Assembly (NCBI GenBank): GCA_951406725.2
Contig: OX597819.1
Span: 79,732,001 to 79,796,000 of the forward strand
Reading direction: 5' to 3'
Length of the DNA: 64,000 nucleotides
Source: Octopus vulgaris
Taxonomy: Eukaryota
Of this stretch, positions 12,874 to 56,301 are shown piece after piece. The notes under the pieces were generated by a model. It was not told where the DNA came from. It made no database searches and was given only the letters and a program-made list of their open reading frames with translations. The position numbers were made by a program, and so were the translations under genes. Every line of letters begins with the position of its first letter. Positions within the stretch are counted from its first letter, which is position 1.

Positions 12874-13235
12874 AAACCCATGACCATCACATCGAATTGT
12901 TTGTTGTTCAATATGGCCTTCCTCTTTCGAAGACGTTAAGCAGAGAGTAATTTCAAGGAGATTTGGGACTCAGGAAACCCATGACCCTTACATCGAATTG
13001 TATGTTGTCCAATGTGGCCTTCTTCTTTCGAAGACGTTAAGCAGAGAGTAATTTCAAGGAGATTTGGGACTCAGGAGACTCATGACCATCACATCGAATT
13101 GTATATTGTCCAATGTGGCCTTTCTCTTTCGAAGACGTTAGACAAACCCTTGACCATCACATCGAATTGAATGTTGTCCAATATGGCCTTCATCTTTCGA
13201 AGACGTTTGGCGGGGAGTAATTTCAAGGAGATTTA
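12874..13235. repeat. Tandem repeat, ~101-bp unit, about 3.5 copies
   Basis: AAACCCATGACC..ACATCGAATTG..TCTTTCGAAGACGTT units start at ~12874, 12975, 13076 (shortened) and 13144. Confidence 0.9.
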
Positions 13236-21623: not shown

Positions 21624-21667
<44 letters not shown>

Positions 21668-21750
21668 GGTCCCGGGTTGATTCGGGGTTAACCACAGTAA
21701 GTAAGGTACTCAATACATAGCAGAGTAAAATTAATTTATTATATAGAAGG

Positions 21751-21801
21751 AGCTTCTACAGGACTAGTACTGTTTCATTCAAGAGAAATCTTCAGGAAGC
21801 T
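21751..21801 (-). ncRNA. Type I hammerhead ribozyme (copy 1 of 4)
   Basis: AGCTTC-CTGAAGA-tTTC/GAAt-GAA-ACAG-TACTAGTC-CTGT-A-GAAGCT on the minus strand. Confidence 0.8.
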
Positions 21802-22146
21802 ATTTAACAAGAATTGTATTAGCATTTATACATTTAGGCAGGTTTAAAGGAGTGGTGGTGGGGGGACTTTTTGGGGGTAGGCATAGCGCAAAATATCATA
21901 CTTGGGGGAGTGGTCAAGGAGTCAGTGGTAAGTTAGATGAAAGAATAGATAAATAAAAAAATAAAAAAATAAAAAAATAAAAAATATATATAAAAAATAT
22001 AAAAAATATATATATAAGAATATATATATAAAAAAAGGGGGGATAGAGTTATAGGTAAATAAGGAGATTCTCACTTATACCTATACACACATGTATACGT
22101 ATCTACACACACACATATATATATATATATACACATACACATACAT

Positions 22147-22191
<45 letters not shown>

Positions 22192-23002
22192 CATATACAT
22201 ATATACACACATACATACATATCTACATACACACATACATACACCCGCCCACATATACAAATTTATACACATGCACATGCCTATACCTGTCTACACATAC
22301 ACACACGTATATATGCATACACTCACTCCCATGCATGCACGCATACACACATGTATATATATATATATACCCACGACCACACATACATATATACACATAA
22401 AAATATATATTCATACGCACATACACTCATGCACACACAACACACCTAGTTCCCTATATACACATATTTACACCTATATATACATACACCCACATACACC
22501 TATGTACATATATATATATATAAACATATACACGCATACATATATATACATGTGTGCACATACATACATACACACATATATACATACACATACACATACA
22601 CATGTGTACCTATACATACCTACACATACACACATACATACATAAAAATATACATATACATATATATATATACAATCCAATACAGGCCCATTCCCTAATT
22701 TTAATTTTATTATCTTCATTTATTACTTTTGTTATCTTTGATCGCTAGAGCTAAGAATCCTGGCAATGGCTGCATGTCCATTTGTCTGTCTACTAGAAGG
22801 CAAGTACTCATTCCCGCACGCACACTCATTAGCACGTACATTCACCCATTCGTACACTCATACACATACACGTACGCACGCGTTATATTCATACATACAA
22901 ACATCTACATACGTTCACGTATATACACATACGTACTCGTACCTACAGATTCGTGTCTACACTTTAGGAGGCTAGTCTATACATATACACCAATAAATAT
23001 AC

Positions 23003-23033
<31 letters not shown>

Positions 23034-23075
23034 TACACACACACACACATATATACTCCTACATACAGATACATA

Positions 23076-23136
<61 letters not shown>

Positions 23137-23154
23137 TTAATTTATTATATAGAA

Positions 23155-23206
23155 GGAGCTTCTACAGGACTAGTACTGTTTCATTCAAGAGAAATCTTCA
23201 GGAGCT
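23155..23206 (-). ncRNA. Type I hammerhead ribozyme (copy 2 of 4; helix I one base short)
   Basis: Identical core and helices II/III; the 5' strand of helix I is altered at the inversion junction. Confidence 0.7.
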
Positions 23207-23255
23207 TCCTGAAGATTTCTCTTGAATGAAACAGTACTAGTCCTGTAGAAGCTCC
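23201..23255 (+). ncRNA. Type I hammerhead ribozyme (copy 3 of 4)
   Basis: 8-bp helix I GGAGCTTC/GAAGCTCC, core CTGAAGA 23209-23215, GAAA 23228-23231, helix III ACAG/CTGT with palindromic ACTAGT loop, GTA triplet 23245-23247. Confidence 0.82.
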
Positions 23256-23518
23256 TTCTATATAATAAATTAATTTTACTCTGCTATGTATTGAGTACCT
23301 TACTTACTGTGGTTAACCCGTATCAACCCGGGAACTACATATATATATATACATATATATATTTTTATTTATCTATTCTTTCATCTAACTTACCACTGAC
23401 TCCTTGACCACTCCCCCAAGTATGATATTTTGCGCTATGCCTACCCCCAAAAAGTCCCCCACCACCACTCCTTTAAACCTGCCTAAATGTATAAATGCTA
23501 ATACAATTCTTGTTAAAT

Positions 23519-23569
23519 AGCTTCCTGAAGATTTCTCTTGAATGAAACAGTACTAGTCCTGTAGAAGCT
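23519..23569 (+). ncRNA. Type I hammerhead ribozyme (copy 4 of 4)
   Basis: AGCTTC/GAAGCT helix I, CTGAAGA 23525-23531, GTA triplet 23561-23563. Confidence 0.82.
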
Positions 23570-23583
23570 CCTTCTATATAATA

Positions 23584-23616
<33 letters not shown>

Positions 23617-23673
23617 ATATGTATGTATGTATGTATATATGCATGTATATGTGTATATATATATGTGTATATG

Positions 23674-23704
<31 letters not shown>

Positions 23705-23729
23705 GTATCTATATCTATCTATATATATG

Positions 23730-23787
<58 letters not shown>

Positions 23788-29327: not shown

Positions 29328-31029
29328 CCATCAACAACAACATCATCGTTGTCATTAACATTTAATGTCCGTTTTCCATGCTGGCATAGGTTGGATGTTT
29401 TGAGAGGAACTGGCCAATCCAGTTGCCATAGTTTGTTTTGCTTTGGTTTCTACGATTGGATGCCCTTCCTAACGCCTTCCAATCCACAGAATATACTAGT
29501 TGCTTTTTACGTAGCATTAACACCCACATCAATACCACATATCTCGATACTGTGTCATCTCCTTCGTAAGGTTCAGCGTTGTCTTCCTGGGTCTCTCATA
29601 TATGGAAAAATTCAGATAAACATAAGTATACTTTTACTGTTGCAGTTATTTAGAACTTTTTGTTTGGACCATCGGAGGAATCTGTTACAGAGATCTATAT
29701 CTCTATAATGAAATGCAATAAAATGTTCCCCTAATGATCCAATACCGTTAGGCTACCAAATGCACTTGGAACATACGAGGCTGAGTTTTAAATAATTGTA
29801 ATGCTAAAACACATAATTTATACTTGTGTTTATCAGAATTTTCCAATATATATGCTCCGTACATCATAACTAGTAGCACTAGCAAATACAGTGGTAGACT
29901 AACTCCTACATCGGAAGCTGACTAGATAATAACATTCTAAGTAGAGCACTAACTCATACAGTAGTAATCGTGCATCTAATTGTTATACACAATGGCTGGA
30001 TACATACTAAGTCTCATTGCACAGCAAGTGTCTTAGTATAGACCCGAGTCGAATAATACCTTGTGATTGAATTCGATTGTCAGAAACTGTGTAAGCCTGT
30101 TGCATGTGTCTTTTTGTATGCATGTCCTCCACACCGCTTGACAACCAGGTTTTGTTTGTTTACGCCCCTGTAAATTAAACAGTTCGAGGCTTAGAAAAAT
30201 AACTCTTGAATGTGGAGCCCCAGCAAGGTCGCAGCCCACTGACTGAAAGAAGTAGAAAATGAAGCATAAAAGTATACATTCATATTAAGAGAAAATGAAC
30301 TTCGCAAAATAAACAAGAAACCCCCCCCCACCTCACAAAAAAATTCTTAAATGTCAATGTCCTACTGCACTTATTTATGTGTTCCTACTTAACGAAAGTA
30401 TATGATGCACAAGGAAGATAGCATGTCATGTAACTTAACTATCAGTTTTTATACTAAAAATCTCATAGAGTAAAATTATGAATAAATTTAGAAATAAATT
30501 CTTACCGAAAAAGCACATCAATGAATTTAAAACAAGTTTAAAGTAGAGAAACACTGTAAGATAAATAAATAGCTATGATCGGTTATTTCTTTATAGAAGT
30601 ATTGATATTAAAATTGATTCTTATATAAAAACTATATGGAAATAAGAAAACATTAGCATGACTTATAATAATGTCTACATTTTAATTTTTATCATACAAA
30701 CTTAATGCAATAGTGTCCCGACTAGTAAATTCGCGTACACGATACAGTTAACTTACCCTCTACATTATCTTAATATTCGGACAGAGTACAGATTTGAGTA
30801 TTTGTAGCTTAGGGGATTACGTGACCATTAATATTTCAGTACTCGCTGGGTTTAAAAGTCTGCTATTGAACTTATTACTGAAATTGGGTTTCTGATCTTT
30901 TAGAGTAAGAAAAGCTTCACGTTTAGTTTAGCATTCTAACCTATTATCAATTTTACTTCGTTTAGAAAGGAATTTATCCTCATCATTAATATCATTGGTT
31001 CTATCTATATTAGCTTTCCTGTATTTAGT

Positions 31030-31540
31030 AGAAATGGTGTCGTGTAGCTGCCCCAATATGAAGAACATTATAACTTGTAAACACAACCAAGAACCCACTC
31101 ATTGTTGTAACTGTCGAGACCCTGAAGCTTGCCCACTTGACCAGGCGTGTATGATAAACTCCGTCGTATATGAAGCAGAAGTAAATAGCAACCCTTCAAG
31201 ATAATCTAGCTGAAAAGAAATCCCCTTCGAATAACATTGAGTAATGCAAAGATGATTTCAAAAACCGTTATGCAAACTACCTCTCTACTTTTCGGCAAAA
31301 GTAACGCCGCTATGTTGGCTTACCACGCATGTAGTTTGAAGAGTATCTCCACACCGCTTCTAATCAAATGGAGAATCGTGAAGAAATCTAAACCATATAA
31401 TAAGGGTCTAAGAAATTCAAATTATGCGTAGCAGAAATATCATATATTTTTTTAGATCTAAGAATCCCACCACATGGCTTAATTCCAGATCTCAAATTTT
31501 TAGTAGGTGCAAGCACATGCACAGGTTTCTTTTATTGAAT
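31030..31540 (+). pseudogene. Penelope-like element GIY-YIG endonuclease relic (Naiad-type)
   Basis: SCPNMKNII..HN..CNCRDPEACPLDQAC (CxCx5Cx5C) ..VVYEAEV, then across frameshifts FKNRYANY..TFR, IKWRIVKKSKPY, KLC, LNSRSQIFSRCKH. Confidence 0.78.
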
Positions 31541-31839
31541 CGGAGGACACGAGCGGCTCAGAGTCGCGAGGATTATACTGGGAAATTTTCTAGACCTCGT
31601 TACATTATTGTTTGCTCTATTTGAAGACGAAAATTATCCGTAAATTCGCTTATGTGTAAAGCAACATATTATGTAGGGGTGGGATGGAAGCGGGAAGGAA
31701 ACACTTTTTACCATTTGGAAATATGTAAATGCTGCAAGCTCGGTGAGACTATACTATGTGCCAGAACACATAAATAATTATACCACGTGTACATATATAT
31801 ATATATATAAAATAATATGTTACATTTACTCAATAGTCA

Positions 31840-31902
31840 AGATAAAACTCTGAGTTTCAGATGCCGAAGTGGAAATCAACAACACCATCTCTTCGGTTAT
31901 CT
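31840..31902 (-). ncRNA. HHR motif (U4C core), left arm
   Basis: AGATAA-CCGAAGA-GATG...CATC-t-GAAAC-TCAGA-GTT-TTATCT. Confidence 0.65.
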
Positions 31903-32426
31903 GGCCATCTGAAAAACGCTATGAAAAAATACCGTTATATAAAGGGAAATTACTGTGTTATAATTCTGCTCGCGGTCCCACGTGCGTACTTATACGTCAC
32001 TATGAAAACGTACACATCTTTACTCGCATTTTTCGCCAAATATATACGCATATATATACAAACTCATACACACACGCATGCGTACCGTAAAAGTTCATAC
32101 ATACGTCTATATACGCACAAGCACAAGAAAAACCATGGTTAAAGGTAACAGAAAAAAAAACATAAGGAAGTATACAAAGCATAAAAACCACGTTCATATT
32201 CGGACATGCCCCTATATAGACGTATGTATGAACTTTTATGGTACGCATGTGTGTGTGTGTATGAGTTTGTATATATATGCGTATATATTTGGCAAAAAAT
32301 ATGCGAGTGAAGATGTGTACGTTTTCATAGTGACGTATAAGTACGCACGTGGGTTGCGAGCAGAATTATAACACAGTAATTTCCCTTTATATAACGGTAT
32401 TTTTTCATAGCGTTTTTCAGATGGCC

Positions 32427-32489
32427 AGATAACCGAAGAGATGGTGTTGTGGATTTCCACTTCGGCATCTGAAACTCAGAGTTTTATCT
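32427..32489 (+). ncRNA. HHR motif (U4C core), right arm
   Basis: Helix I AGATAA/TTATCT, CCGAAGA 32433-32439, helix II GATG/CATC capped by GTGGA/TCCAC, quasi-palindromic helix III ACTC-A-GAGT, GTT triplet. Confidence 0.68.
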
Positions 32490-32589
32490 TGACAATTGAA
32501 TAAATGTAACATATTATTTTATAGATAATTTTCCTCTATTTACATAATATTGAGGTCTCTTTCTTTCTTTTGTTATCTTACCGTTTTTA

Positions 32590-37790: not shown

Positions 37791-37976
37791 CGATAGCAAA
37801 GATGGATATGCGCATCATGTGTATACATGGAACTGAACCCGAAACTATGTGGTTGCAAAGTGAACTACTTACCGCACAGCCACGCCTTACTTTGGAGTAG
37901 ATTCTTCTGTTTCCCTCAACCATTTGATATTGTGTGTGCAGAAGCGAGCTGCTATCATATCTAGCAGATGAAGTGT

Positions 37977-38027
37977 TCAGTACTGAGGAGCGGCAGACAT
38001 AACCCGAAACCAGGACTGGTCTACTGA
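37977..38027 (+). ncRNA. Type I hammerhead ribozyme with canonical core and GUC cleavage triplet
   Basis: Helix I TCAGTA/TACTGA, CTGAGGA 37983-37989, weak helix II G(C)GG/CCC, GAAA 38006-38009, helix III ACCAG/CTGGT, GTC 38019-38021. Confidence 0.8.
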
Positions 38028-38190
38028 TCCCGTTGACGGGATATGGTAGGGGTCCGCTCCCCTGATACCAATTTTATCGGAAGCAGCTATACATCGTTAA
38101 CCAACTAAGGTGATGCCTTCTTGGGGTTAAAAATGGCAGTAGATTCCGCTCAACGGACAGCCATGCTAACGCGGCTACAAGTATTACTTG

Positions 38191-49345: not shown

Positions 49346-51024
49346 AACAGGAAAACAATAAATTCCGACCAGTCTGTGTAATTTCAAAAGGTCAGAATTA
49401 CCCACTAAAACCACAGCAATAAAGAATTCCTTTCCTGGAAACTACATATTAAATAAACACAGCTGTTGCACTTGTGCTTATTGTTGCATAGATTTAAATC
49501 ACGTCTGATGAAATTAAGCTATGACTAAAGACATTCCAGACCTGCCAATCCAGCCTTTTCTGTTTCAGTCATAGTGTGTCTAGGATTACATTCTCTTATG
49601 CACTTTAATCTTTATTAGTGCGTATGGTGTCATTTGAGGAATATTTGGCCGTTATTTCCTGCTGGTGGGACGAATTAGTGGATGCTTACATGCGAATTCT
49701 GTACAGTAAAGCAAATATGGTCTTAAGGTAACACATATCGCTACTTTAACGTGGGTGTTCTCTAACAGATGATAATACTGTCGGTTTAACCCCAGGAACA
49801 CATGTCCTGGTTTATCCAGTGCACTTTCGCACTCGAGACCACGAAACTACGTTAGTCTAACCTTGCTTGCAATATATAGAATATACAGTGTCATACAATC
49901 ACTGATTTTGTAACTAGGAAATATGTCCGTTTGAAAATTTCTGTTCGAGATAGAAGCAATATGCGAACCAAAAAGGTAGTGTATGTCGCCACTTTATAGT
50001 ACTTTTGGCATTTGCAATTTTCATTTTTTAATCCTTGAGAGAAAAGATGAAAAAGTTATCACGTGGTTTGAACTTGGAAACAATACTGAAATTAACTGTT
50101 GTAGACTAATTATCTCGTATATACCCCCAATTTTATTGTTGTTGGTGTTTACGATGATGATGAGGAGGAGGTTGATCTTATTGACGATGACGACGACAAC
50201 GACGACGATGACGATGATGGTGATGATGATGATGCAATGATGACGATGACGACAACGACGACGACGACGATGATGGTGATGATGATGATGCAATGATGAC
50301 GATGACGACAACGGCGATGTCGCCGATGATGACGATGACAATGACGACGATGACGATTTTCTTCATGATGATGGTGATGATGATGATCATCATCATCATC
50401 CTCATGATCATACTGACCATGATCGTGTTGGCAACAATGACGATGATGACCACGACGACGATGATGACCACGACGACGATGACGATGATGATGATGGTGA
50501 TGATAATGACTACGACAAGATGACGATAATGATGATTAAGTTGATGGCTAATAACGTCGACGACGACGGCAACGATGATGATTGTGATGGTGATAATTGT
50601 GTTTTATGATGATGATGATGATGATGATGACGATGGTAGGGGTGATAGCTGTAATAGTCTTTAACGCTACCGACTACCCCCACCAACAAAACACCACCAC
50701 TTGGGCAACTTTTGCGACATCAGTTTCTTTTATAGTGCAATTAATCATATATTAAGGGTGCAAAGTTTTTGACAGAGGATGGAGAAGGGGAGAAAAAGAA
50801 AGAGAAAGAAAGAAAAAGAAAACGAGAAAGATAGATGATGAGGATGATGATGTCGATGATGATGATGTTCATGATGACGATGATGTTGATGGTGAGGATG
50901 AAAGTGGTGGTGTAGACAACAGAAGAGAGAGAACGTAGTGTATGTAGGTGGAGGAGATTTATGAGACAGAAACGTATGGTAGGTGAAGGCTGAGAGAGAC
51001 AAAAAATGTGTAAGAATAAAATTT

Positions 51025-51060
<36 letters not shown>

Positions 51061-51491
51061 AAGAAAGGGAGAGAGAGAGAAAGAAAGAGAGAGAGGTTGA
51101 ACGAGAAATAGTGTGAGAGAGAAAAATGTGACGTCGAGAAATAGATACGCGTTAAAGAGAAGTGAGTGAGAGAGAGAAAGAGGAGTGGGAGAGAAGAGGA
51201 GAGGGAGGGAGAAAGAGAGAAAAGTACAGTGATTTATGAGAGTCAAAGAGATGTGCCGAAAGAACGGAGAGAATGAGAATGATGGAGAGAGAGAGAGGGG
51301 TATAACATCAACTATAGTGATTTATGAGAGGAGACACTAAAGAGAATAGGGAATGAAGAGAGAGAGAGTGGGAGAGAGAGAGATAGTGACAGAATATAGA
51401 AAATGAGAGAGAAAGGGAGATGCAGAGAGTGAAAGAAGATTGAAAGAACTCGGGGTAACAGAGGTAGATGGGGAGAAAAAGTGTACTTCTA

Positions 51492-51532
<41 letters not shown>

Positions 51533-52316
51533 AGAAATAGAAAAACAATGTGTTTTTTGCAAAGTGAGGGAAAATAGAAAATACCATGGGAGTAAGTAAT
51601 GTTGTTAGATAGACAGATAGATAGATAAAGGGAAAGAGAGAAAGAGAGAGAGAGAGAGGGAGAGAGAGAGGGGGAGAGAGAGGATTGGGTAAATTATTAG
51701 GAAAATGAAGGGATTACTAAAGCTAGCAGGAGTAAGTACCAAGAGTTTGAGAGACTGAAGGAGAGAAAATTTTCTTAGAAAAGTGTAGACGACGGAGAGA
51801 AAATGGAAGAGAAGTGAGTGTGTGTGTGCGTGTGTGTGTATGTGTGTGTGTGTGTGTGTGTGTATGCGTGTGTATGCGTGTGTGTGTGTGTACGTGTGTG
51901 TGCGTATGTATGTTTATGTGTGTGTATCAGTAAAACATGGTGTAACAAAAATGGCGTCCATGACTTAGAGAGAATAGAAGAAACATACGGAAGTTTTAGT
52001 GAGAGTTTGAAATTGAACTAGAATTACCTAATGTAAAGGCGGAGAGAGAGATTGAGAGAGAGGGAGAGAGGAGGGAGAGGGAGAGAGGAGGGAGAGGAAG
52101 AGAGTGACAGACAGATGGACATGAAGGAAGATAAAGAGAGAGAGAAAGCATGGATTAGGCTGTAAGGTAGTGAGAGTTAAGTAGTAGAAAGAAGTAATGA
52201 TTAAATAAAGCGAGGGGGTGATGTAATAAAAACAAGAACTTGAAAACAATAAATATGGAGAGATTTGTAGGTTTTTATGGGAAATAGAAAAGACAAGCGA
52301 GAGAGGGAGGATAGTT

Positions 52317-52408
<92 letters not shown>

Positions 52409-52420
52409 GAGATAGATAAA

Positions 52421-52451
<31 letters not shown>

Positions 52452-52771
52452 AAATGTTTTATCGGGTGAAAGAGAAAGAGAGAGAGAGAGATAGACAAGC
52501 AGAGGAAGAGAGGCAGTGTGAGGCCTAGGGAGAAGGATAGAGAACGGCAGAATAAAGGAATGTAGAGAGATAGAAGACAAAAAGTTATGCGTAAAGTGAG
52601 AGAGGAGATAAAAAGGAAGAAGGAGAAGTTTGTGAGATTTATGAGAAATAAAAGTACTTAAAACAAAGAGAAAGAAAGGAAAGAGAGAGAGAGAGGAAAG
52701 GGGAGCTTAAGTATGAGAGGTGCAAGCTGAGAAGCGGAGAAAAAGTAAATAAAAGAAAGACAGAGAAGTGT

Positions 52772-52822
<51 letters not shown>

Positions 52823-53019
52823 GGGGAGAGTTATTGGTGATAGGAGGAAAAGGAGACTATTAAACAGAGTGAAATGGGTAATTATTTGAGAGAGAGGAAC
52901 TCAGAAGAGATGAGGGGAAATGTCAGGGTTGAAAGTACGATATAGATTTATGAGATAGTGAGAAGAAAGATAAGAGAGACACGGAGATAGAAAGGAGAGA
53001 ATGAGAGAGGTGAGACAAG

Positions 53020-53325
53020 GAAATGGAGAAGAAGAGAGAAGAATGCTGAGGTAAAAGATTAACATTATGATAGTGAGAAAAAGGATAGCAGAGACACAGA
53101 TTGAAAGGAGAGAAGTGAGACTAGGGAACAGAGAGAAAGAGAGAAAGGAAGAGAGAAGAATGCTGAGGTAAAAGATCAACATTATGATAGTGAGAAAAAG
53201 GATAGGAGAGACAGATTGAAAGGAGAAAATGAGAGAAGTGAGACAAGGAAATAGAGAGAAAGAAAGAGAGAGAGAGAGAGAGGGAGGAAGAGAGAGGAAT
53301 GCTGAGGTAAAAGATCAACATTATG
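53020..53325. repeat. Three ~120-140-bp tandem units
   Basis: GAATGCTGAGGTAAAAGAT(C/T)AACATTATG at ~53041, 53158 and 53297. Confidence 0.85.
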
Positions 53326-53384
53326 TGATGTAGAAATAGAGACTGAAGAAAAAGATGCAGGCGAGAGAGAGGTGGAAAAAACTG

Positions 53385-53665
53385 AGAAGGGAAGAGAAAT
53401 GTGCGGAGAAGTGGAGGAGGGAAGAGAGATGTGCGGAGAAGGGACGTAGGAAAGAGAGAGATGTGTGGAGAAGAGGAGGAGGGAAGAGAGATGTGCGGAG
53501 AAGAGGAGGAGGGAAGAGAGACGTGTGGAGAAGAGAGACGTGCGGAGAAGAGGAGGAGGGAAGAGAGATGTGCGGAGAAGAGGAGGAGGGAAGAGAGATG
53601 TGCGGAGAAGAGAGACGTGCGGAGAAGAGGAGGAGGGAAGAGAGATGTGCGCAGAAGAGGAGAAG
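53385..53665. repeat. 30-bp minisatellite with 17-bp deletion variants
   Basis: Unit GAGAGATGTGCGGAGAAGAGGAGGAGGGAA, about 10 full or partial copies. Confidence 0.9.
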
Positions 53666-54123
53666 AGGATATAGAAGTGGTGGCAACAATTCAGGGTTGA
53701 AACAAATATTTGTGTAGTGGCACTCAAGAAAGAGAAAAAATTAAGGGTGGAGGGCATAGAATGAAAGAGAGAGAGAGGGGGTATGGAAGGAAGGAAGGAG
53801 TGAGAGGAAGGGAAAAAGGGGAGAAAGTTAGATAGGGAAAGAAACGACAAAACTCTAGAAGAAAAAGGACATCAACAATCTGAGAAACAAAGGTTAGTAC
53901 GAAACAAACCTTGGAAAGCCAAGAGAGAGAGAGAAAGAGAGAGAGAGGAGAAAAAGGGAGAGAGAGTGGAGAAAAGGAGAAAGAAAGGGGCGGGAAAGAA
54001 AAAGAAAAGAGAGAAGGGGAGAGAGAGGAATGGAAAGTGAGAAAGGTTGAAAGGGGAAGAATCTAGACAAAAATCTAGGAAAAAAAAACATGAAAATCGA
54101 CAAAGTATGAGAAACAAAGGGAT

Positions 54124-54191
<68 letters not shown>

Positions 54192-54674
54192 AGTAATATA
54201 AACCATGTGAAGCTAAAATAGTGGGAGAGAGAGAGAAAGAGGAGGTGGGTAGACGCATATAGATTTATGATAGAACAAGCGCGGAGATAAAAAAAAAGTA
54301 CACATACACAAAATAAATATAAAAAAAAGAACGGAATGGGATAGAACGGAAAAGAGAGAACGGGATACATCAGACAGGGAGAGGAGATATATAGAGAGAG
54401 AAGGAGAGAAGGAGAGAGAAAGAGAAAAAGAGAGAAGGAGAGAGAGTGGTAAAGAGAGCGTGTATGATGAATAAATCAATAGAAAACGTGTATTCATCAT
54501 TAAAAAAAATGATGAAAGTGCAAATATCAAACGAGCGATAGATCGGTCAGTGAGATGTCGTAATTCTGAAGATGTCACCATCTTTATGCCATATTATTAA
54601 ATTAAAACCAATCCATTATTATATAGCATCATCACACTGCCCCGTACCATAGTTTGTGAATTATTGCATTGCGG

Positions 54675-54816
54675 CAACAACAGCAGCAGCAGCACCAGCG
54701 GCACCATCGGCACCAGCGGCACCAGCAGCAGCAGCAGAAGCAGAACATCGAGAAAGGTATTAGCAGCATCACCATCGGCAGAAGCAGTAGAAACAACACC
54801 AAGAAGAGTATTAGTT

Positions 54817-54902
<86 letters not shown>

Positions 54903-55086
54903 GGTGGAAGTAGTTTTGATAGTTGTAGTTGTGATGTTGGTGACAGTTGTAGTAGAAGTAGTGATGGTGATGCTGGTGGTAGTGGTGGTGGTGGTGGCGG
55001 CGGCAGTAGTAGGATTTATGGCAGTAGTGGCGGTGGTAGTTGAAGTAGTAATAATAATGGGGGTGGTTAGGGTATTTGTAGTAGTC

Positions 55087-55122
<36 letters not shown>

Positions 55123-55390
55123 GTGTGGTGGTGGTGGTGGTTTTGATAGTTGTAATAATTGTGGTAGTGCTGATGACAGAAGTAGAAGTATTGGTGGTGG
55201 GGGTGGCGGCGGCGGTAGTAGTAGAAGTTGTGGCAGTAGCGGTGGCGGTAGTAGTAGTAATAATAATAATGGTGATGGCATTGTTATTTGTGGTAGTGGT
55301 GATGATGGTAATAGAGGATGAAGTGGTAGTACTGCGGCAGCAGTAGTGGTAGTAGTAGTAGTAGTAGTAGTAGCAGCAGCAGCAGCCGTA

Positions 55391-55437
<47 letters not shown>

Positions 55438-55475
55438 CGTAGTAGTAGTAGTAGTAGTAGTTGTTGTTGTTGTTT
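54675..55475. repeat. (CAG)n/(TAG)n/(TGG)n compound trinucleotide region
   Basis: Read directly. Confidence 0.9.
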
Positions 55476-55514
55476 GGTGTGGTTGTTTGTTACTGTTGCT
55501 GTTAGAACCATAAT

Positions 55515-55760
55515 TTAAGACGGAGAGCTGGCGGTATCGTTAGCACGCCGGGCAAAATGCTTAGCGATATTTCGTCCGTCTTCACGTTCTGAGTTCAAAT
55601 TCCGCCGAGGTCGCTTTTGCCTTTCATTCCTTTTGGTGTCGATAAAATAAAAACCAGTAGAGTAGATGTAGTGGCAATAATTTAGGATCGAAACAAATAT
55701 CAACTTGGCTCCTGACCCATAACAGCTGAGCTTGTGGTAAAATTTGAAACCAATGTTGGT
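55515..55760 (+). mobile_element. SINE-like family B, well preserved; another decayed copy follows at ~55830-55975
   Basis: GAGCTGGC..ATCGTTAGCACGCCGGGCAAAATGCTTAGCG..TTCTGAGTTCAAATTCCGCCGAGGTCG. Confidence 0.8.
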
Positions 55761-56301
55761 ATCATAATTATAGTTATAATGTACGTTGGTGGTGGGAAGT
55801 AACAGAAGCGCAACTGAAAAGCTAGCAAAACTAGACTTTCAGTACTGAGTTCAAATCTCGCCGATATCAAATTTCTCCTTTTATTTTCCCGGGTCCGACA
55901 AAACAAAATACCAAATATTGGTGTGGCGGGGGGAGGTCATCTTGTGCGTAACTATGTTAGAAATATATTATTGTTATCAAATATAATAGAGAAAGATGAG
56001 CAAAGAATCATTCCTGCTGTCGACGTTTGGCATTGTCGTTTCTTATAATTTAAGCCAAAGAATTGTTATTGGTTACCTTTTACATATTTTAATCATTGGA
56101 CTGCGACCATTCTGAGGCATCCCCACCCAAAGCATTTAGTCGAACAAAGCGATCCTAGTACCTACATTTTAAAGCTTGGTGCTTATTGTATCTGTGTCTT
56201 TTGCCCAATAGCTACCGGAGCGAAAACAATCAATAGCAATTGATAAGCCGTGTGGGAGACAAACAGTAAATACATACGCATAGATGCATAATACATACAT
56301 A

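Follow-up and report, generated by a model that had tools for sequence, protein, structure and literature searches.

We asked whether four type I hammerhead ribozyme (HHR) motifs, found on both strands between positions 21751 and 23569 of a 64,000-nt stretch of the Octopus vulgaris genome (the window), encode a small self-processing RNA or descend from a protein-coding retroelement. The first-pass annotation of this DNA had proposed that the plus-strand pair forms a non-coding retrozyme, excised as a 316-nt RNA that circularises and spreads. Our analysis supports a different answer, to which we assign a probability of about 0.88: the locus combines three pieces, each truncated at its 5' end, of a Penelope-like element (PLE) that encodes a protein and carries HHRs. 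The pieces likely derive from two separate insertions, and the 316-nt stretch is a junction between them that is present in a single copy.

Four hammerhead motifs in the window

A motif scan identified three type I HHR cores, with C3 at 23209 and 23525 on the plus strand and at 21795 on the minus strand. The fourth (C3 at 23201, minus strand) was recognised by its 100% identity over 67 nt (23137-23203 compared with 21731-21797); the scan's helix-I filter passed it over, as an alteration of its 5' helix-I strand leaves 2 bp followed by a bulge. HHR1 lies at 21751-21801 on the minus strand, with predicted cleavage 3' of 21757 (minus strand) and a helix I of 6 bp. HHR2 (23157-23207, minus strand, predicted cleavage at 23163) has a helix I altered at an inversion junction, and its arm ends at about +27. 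On the plus strand, HHR3 (23200-23256) has predicted cleavage after 23247, a helix I of 9 bp and a tail that follows to 23339, and HHR4 (23519-23569) has predicted cleavage after 23563 and a helix I of 6 bp. The previously reported spacings of 316 nt for the plus-strand pair and 1406 nt for the minus-strand pair are correct, and in formal terms the plus pair is a permuted form of 21665-21965.

The motifs have CUGANGA, GAAA and UH at a three-way junction, with helix I as the open end. Their helices are as first described, with a helix II of 3 bp closed by U-U and a helix III of 4 bp with the palindrome ACTAGT. The G10.1-C11.1 pair that closes helix II is absent and U-U takes its place; U...U flanking helix II is listed for the Hydra-1_aJap and Hydra-1_cRog HHRs in File S2 of PMC8557442. 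A short helix III with a palindromic loop, the feature looked for in hammerheads that act as dimers, is present, and a second subfamily retains its inner CTAG. The core is not a chance occurrence, because its 47 nt have 1716 exact matches in this genome and a control has 0. The Rfam hammerhead models had no match to the window, either at the gathering threshold or among the 84 matches at E <= 10. The Rfam matches with the best E-values were miRNA models on palindrome and microsatellites, and were rejected.

Three pieces of one element

Subfamily markers distinguish the pieces of the locus. In other copies of the element, long-U is linked to a GGACC tail (31 of 31) and short-U to a GGAAC tail (26 of 26). 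Piece A (21664 to about 23080, minus strand) is a 5'-truncated PLE arm comprising the distal 1.4 kb of the 3'UTR, segment U, HHR1 and a full tail (to about +95). It belongs to the long-U subfamily, and its 5' end is blurred within the element's own (TA)n tract. Over 1410 nt, piece A shares 95.5% identity with the 3'UTR of a copy with an open reading frame (L072), so the 1406-nt interval taken for cryptic microsatellite is conserved element sequence; the microsatellite-rich 3'UTR at 21964-23080 (minus strand) is common to copies and is not host sequence.

Piece B (23134-23339, 206 nt) is a separate mini head-to-head insertion with a short arm on the minus strand and a tailed arm on the plus strand. 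HHR2 and HHR3 are the arms of a single 137-nt palindrome within it (23137-23273, 97.8% perfect). Its tail is of the short-U type (GGAAC), and it resembles the mini-palindromes at four other loci (L002, L010, L088 and L091). A TA-rich spacer (23340-23357) leads from the B tail to piece C (23358-23586, plus strand), a short arm of the long-U subfamily that ends +23 past the cleavage site and is followed by (TA)n. Pieces A and C share their markers; with 99.1% identity to A across 230 nt and an end at +23, C makes up a normal head-to-head pair with it. The left flank (21624-21663) is a (TA)n target tract and the right flank (23587-23761) is (TA)n with a TATG microsatellite. Two separate insertions thus likely lie behind the locus, which in itself is ordinary PLE debris.

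The whole-window repeat search was dominated by microsatellites, and long 'ORFs' across TA/TG tracts were rejected as low-complexity artefacts.

The 316-nt stretch as a single-copy junction

The retrozyme proposal has a reasonable starting point: two intact HHR cores stand in direct orientation 316 nt apart, within the 150-450 nt range of animal retrozymes (PMC7229834), and two cuts in a read-through transcript are conceivable in principle. Sequence definitions of non-LTR retrozymes (bioRxiv 10.64898/2026.07.22.740005 and PMC7229834) ask for a tandem of two or more consecutive units that each carry an HHR; a retrozyme unit would also be expected to have spread as a family. The window's 316-nt stretch differs from the animal non-LTR retrozymes described in those sources in not being a tandem unit. 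TRF found no 316-nt period in the window, and the repeated part of the stretch is only 68 nt. The B-tail/C junction, searched in the long-U form that stands in the window, has 1 match in 2.8 Gb. With different subfamily markers in the B tail and in C, and a single occurrence of the junction joining them, the 316-nt unit must be called a chimera of two subfamilies and not a family, and it is likely an accident in which one copy inserted within another.

Two further observations weigh against excision. The unit lacks the ORF-start segment (to at least about +180) that all five genuine mini units, described below, have kept. Folding calculations with a monomer model also predict that the HHR fold is not the minimum in long contexts, at a penalty of 3.6-10.9 kcal/mol: forcing it would cost 3.6 kcal/mol in the native pLTR context, compared with 10.9 kcal/mol for HHR3 in a transcript from 23100 that includes the palindrome. 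Consequently, we regard the retrozyme reading of this stretch as very improbable and as largely refuted at the level of a family. Nor is the family non-coding, as had been supposed, since its parent carries a 713-aa ORF with reverse transcriptase (RT) and endonuclease. Other parts of the proposal were upheld: the motifs are type I HHRs of the PLE kind, and they belong to a young family of retroelements.

A census of direct HHR pairs, limited to exact motifs and gaps of 150-500 nt, returned 74 matches, of which 55 fall in three arrays and 19 are isolated pairs of varied length, the window's included. The locus therefore serves as a warning that nested (TA)n insertions yield HHR pairs resembling retrozymes, with 19 such one-offs in this genome. 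A back-spliced join of 23563 to 23248, suggested as a sign of the circle, is not diagnostic, because it recreates the upstream-HHR-tail sequence of ordinary family 3' ends. Contigs from four sequencing runs, three of them presumed and none recorded to be RNA, cover the shared family parts, and no RNA data set was listed as holding the sequence. No contig spans 23340-23367, a part in which the search tool passes over repeats, so that this speaks neither for nor against the junction; contigs also carry no information on RNA ends. An origin of the four-HHR layout in misassembly of palindromic, TA-rich DNA is hardly credible: palindromes and microsatellites do make assembly difficult, but the same architecture occurs at more than 50 loci with distinct flanks and distinct junctions, and B is not a duplicated read of A because three of their tail positions differ.

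The parent Penelope-like element

The full element reads HHR, tail, 713-aa ORF, a microsatellite-rich 3'UTR of about 3 kb, and HHR. The HHR 3' strand with its tail has 2242 near-identical matches in the genome, exceeding the 1716 exact cores because a second subfamily has one loop-III change, which was found in 20 of 20 sampled loci without the exact core. When 11 long copies were extended upstream, 10 were head-to-head inverted duplications, and some reached the end of the protein gene. At C1:68.81-68.82 Mb, ORF-bearing copies stand in tandem in the order HHR-ORF-UTR-HHR.

Among 13 copies that span the boundary between RT and endonuclease, only L072 has an open ORF, of 713 aa from the first Met. 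The other 12 (L053, L054, L065-L068, L070, L071 and L074-L077) have the frame broken at the same C-run between the two domains. Three causes could account for this: programmed frameshifting, a systematic error in the assembly, or a shared defective lineage mobilised in trans. The L072 protein contains RIRWR at residue 36, DKT at 116, CNCHDKTTC (CxCx5C) at 567, YIG at 603, CDLC (CxxC) at 667 and CMH (CxH) at 695, as well as YRDDG. Pfam and NCBIfam searches with this protein returned no RT or GIY-YIG match, and a PDB sequence search with the ORF returned nothing meaningful. Its predicted structure, modelled from 106 sequences, has a pLDDT of 93.5, and a fold search with that model gave telomerase RTs as the top six PDB matches (best E-value 3.9e-9). 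Homologues numbered 1082 among 8000 scored candidates, and some of them carry the Pfam GIY-YIG domain (for example P0037, residues 599-639).

On the basis of its sequence motifs, the element likely belongs to the Hydra clade. Like Hydra-clade PLEs (PMC8557442), it has a single ORF with a telomerase-like RT followed by a GIY-YIG endonuclease at the C terminus, the DKT motif, a CxCx5C linker and the endonuclease CxxC and CxH; it also has an HHR in the pLTR, near the 3' end, and (TA)n targets. The Naiad clade was ruled out because the endonuclease is C-terminal. Three features depart from the descriptions in the same source. The HHR-to-HHR unit measures 5.2-5.7 kb, compared with generally less than 3 kb for Hydra PLEs, because of the long 3'UTR; the ORF itself is of ordinary size. 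The motif at the Hydra RWK position reads RWR (in RIRWR at 36), and the tail is about 70 nt long compared with 30-40 nt in other PLEs. A cephalopod member, Hydra-1_Obim, is listed there, and its HHR sequence is unlike that of this family. The family, new but of a familiar kind, is very young; a single copy has an open ORF, and insertion follows a nearly strict two-ended rule.

An open 842-aa ORF at L033:816-3341 (minus strand) was considered as the parent and rejected, as it belongs to a second, related PLE family with about 39% identity.

A two-end rule for insertion

At 56 of 57 head-to-head loci, one arm is tailed (to about +95 past the cleavage site) and the other is short (to about +23). 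The 57 leave out 15 others that were duplicates, the window itself or arrays, and many were picked for having a tailed arm, for which only the state of the other arm is a test. The 20 stretches of C1 that were chosen on the core alone (L043-L062) follow the same rule. Classified by their ends, the 167 arms comprise 81 that finish with the tail, 66 that stop at +17 to +27 (+23 in 49 of them), 16 that extend into the ORF and 4 of other kinds. For the first 100 cores on C1, neighbours within 11 kb gave 32 divergent (-,+) pairs, 3 (-,-) pairs and 0 convergent pairs, at a chance of about 0.008 for an HHR neighbour within that distance; 10 of the 32 divergent pairs are mini-palindromes. All inspected ends adjoin a TA-rich microsatellite.

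Much of this layout has precedent. Partial tandems, a head-to-head inverted 5'-truncated arm, a palindromic junction, a tail at one end only and AT-rich targets are shared with the Adineta Penelope (PMC3846280) and Anolis PAc (PMC11167929) elements, and in PAc reverse transcription also starts at two internal sites downstream of the HHR (PMC11167929). The layout and the two internal starts are thus already published for other PLEs (PMC3846280, PMC8557442, PMC11167929). Relative to canonical PLEs, what differs here is that the rule of one tailed and one short arm is counted, and that it holds for multimer arrays too. The ATG lies about 138 nt past the cleavage site in this family, compared with a position inside the HHR in PAc (PMC11167929).

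A mechanism consistent with these ends would begin with endonuclease nicks on the two strands of a (TA)n tract. Reverse transcription may then be primed from each nick, beginning at one or other of two fixed internal sites, one per strand, on a template of uncut or re-ligated RNA. A point against one start site per strand is that RT starts of the Anolis PLE did not differ between strands in vitro (PMC11167929). The two cDNAs would stop early and be joined at their 3' ends, which could have produced A and C, and a later event of the same kind would have placed mini-palindrome B within the TA tract where A and C meet. An excess of copies starting at the cleavage site was not found among the tailed ends: 66 of 2242 differ in the preceding 6 nt, a level close to background divergence. 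Therefore, cut RNA is seldom the template, with the reservation that re-ligated RNA would look identical.

Alternatively, the head-to-head arms of the same element could have arisen by fold-back self-priming on an antisense template, and not from two nicks. Self-priming has been proposed for rotifer Penelope from palindromes at inverted junctions (PMC3846280), and the junctions of mini copies cluster here at the self-complementary 5' edge of the HHR, with the same single-base-shortened palindrome in 10 of 26 and a perfect one in 3. Self-priming alone, however, leaves unexplained why one arm almost invariably ends at +23 and its partner at about +95, each abutting (TA)n, and the arms are often unequal in length with only partial overlap. 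We consider this alternative unlikely and infer priming from two nicks, with one start site per strand. Examples of such clustered junctions are the mini-palindromes at L002, L010, L084 and L091, together with the single-arm locus L008; the shortened palindrome common to 10 of the 26 could reflect cDNA fold-back on helix I.

Tandem mini arrays elsewhere in the genome

The retrozyme idea that failed for the window's unit fits other loci of the family. Three arrays consist of tandem mini units: L063 on C2, with 277-nt units and 6 + 8 HHRs; L064 on C5, with 333-nt units and at least 19 + 3 HHRs; and L098 on C8 (C8:91474300-91484200), with 271-nt units and 5 + about 24 HHRs. Each unit is made of the HHR, the tail and the ORF start joined to an upstream segment. 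The units are near-identical to one another and about 99-100% identical to segments of the parent PLE, and each array was found at one locus only. Two-HHR units of the same make-up occur at L099 (332 nt) and L102 (340 nt), and all five mini units retain sequence to at least about +180. Because their tandem units lie in the 150-450 nt range, carry a type I HHR apiece and lack an intact ORF, the three arrays fall within the sequence definition of a retrozyme.

All three are built head-to-head, with one arm tailed and one short, and several units in both arms share an identical private deletion junction; therefore, the template was already multimeric or circular at insertion. The arrays were likely copied from small RNA circles, a circular template having been proposed earlier for PLE hammerheads (PMC4209133), a proposal that the arrays fit. 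In such a scheme, internally deleted two-HHR derivatives would occasionally be cut and circularised, and the circles would be copied repeatedly by rolling-circle reverse transcription from the same two start sites, producing the 271-, 277- and 333-nt arrays. The fuller claim, that we see retrozymes at birth in at least five internally deleted HHR units generated independently by one active PLE, three of them rolling-circle-copied from both RT starts at once, stands at even odds.

A somewhat less probable account, yet a serious one, is that the arrays grew by unequal crossover or slippage at the DNA level, or through repeated jumps of the RT along linear RNA templates, so that neither a circle nor an active HHR was involved. 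Variant units recur with a 10-unit period in L098 and with 7- and 11-unit periods in L064, as expected of block duplication. In vitro cleavage by PLE HHRs is poor, and insertion in the Anolis system can do without them (PMC4209133, PMC11167929); of 9 Xenopus dimers assayed, 8 showed no cleavage (bioRxiv 10.64898/2026.07.22.740005). This account is opposed by the private junction shared between arms in every array, together with the tailed/short end signature. The recurring variant blocks nonetheless point to some DNA-level expansion or assembly effects within the arrays. One variant unit of L098 is common to opposite arms.

If copying from circles is correct, the arrays would document directly in the genome that circular RNA made by HHRs had been the template of a PLE, and their shared core (HHR, tail and the first ~45 nt of the ORF) would define the minimal cis element. 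Our literature search found no demonstration that PLE hammerheads make circular templates. The mini arrays make the head-to-head build and hammerhead circular templates testable in one system.

Other features of the window

A fifth, unrelated type I HHR motif lies at 37974-38030 (plus strand) in an older dispersed repeat, which has 699 first-look candidates at 75-86% identity, often in inverted pairs. ORF similarity was absent at 8 of 8 of the repeat's loci, and the motif is likely the end of another PLE family. Decayed fragments resembling the PLE protein occur on both strands at 30820-31407 and 31802-32527 (E about 1e-5), adjoined by a 172-nt inverted repeat of 98% identity; they are likely another head-to-head PLE remnant. 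A 101-nt tandem repeat (2.6 copies, 92% matches) occupies 12874-13140. The region 50001-56000 shows a strong G-over-C skew (0.45-0.77) together with an A-over-T skew, and probably consists of simple repeats.
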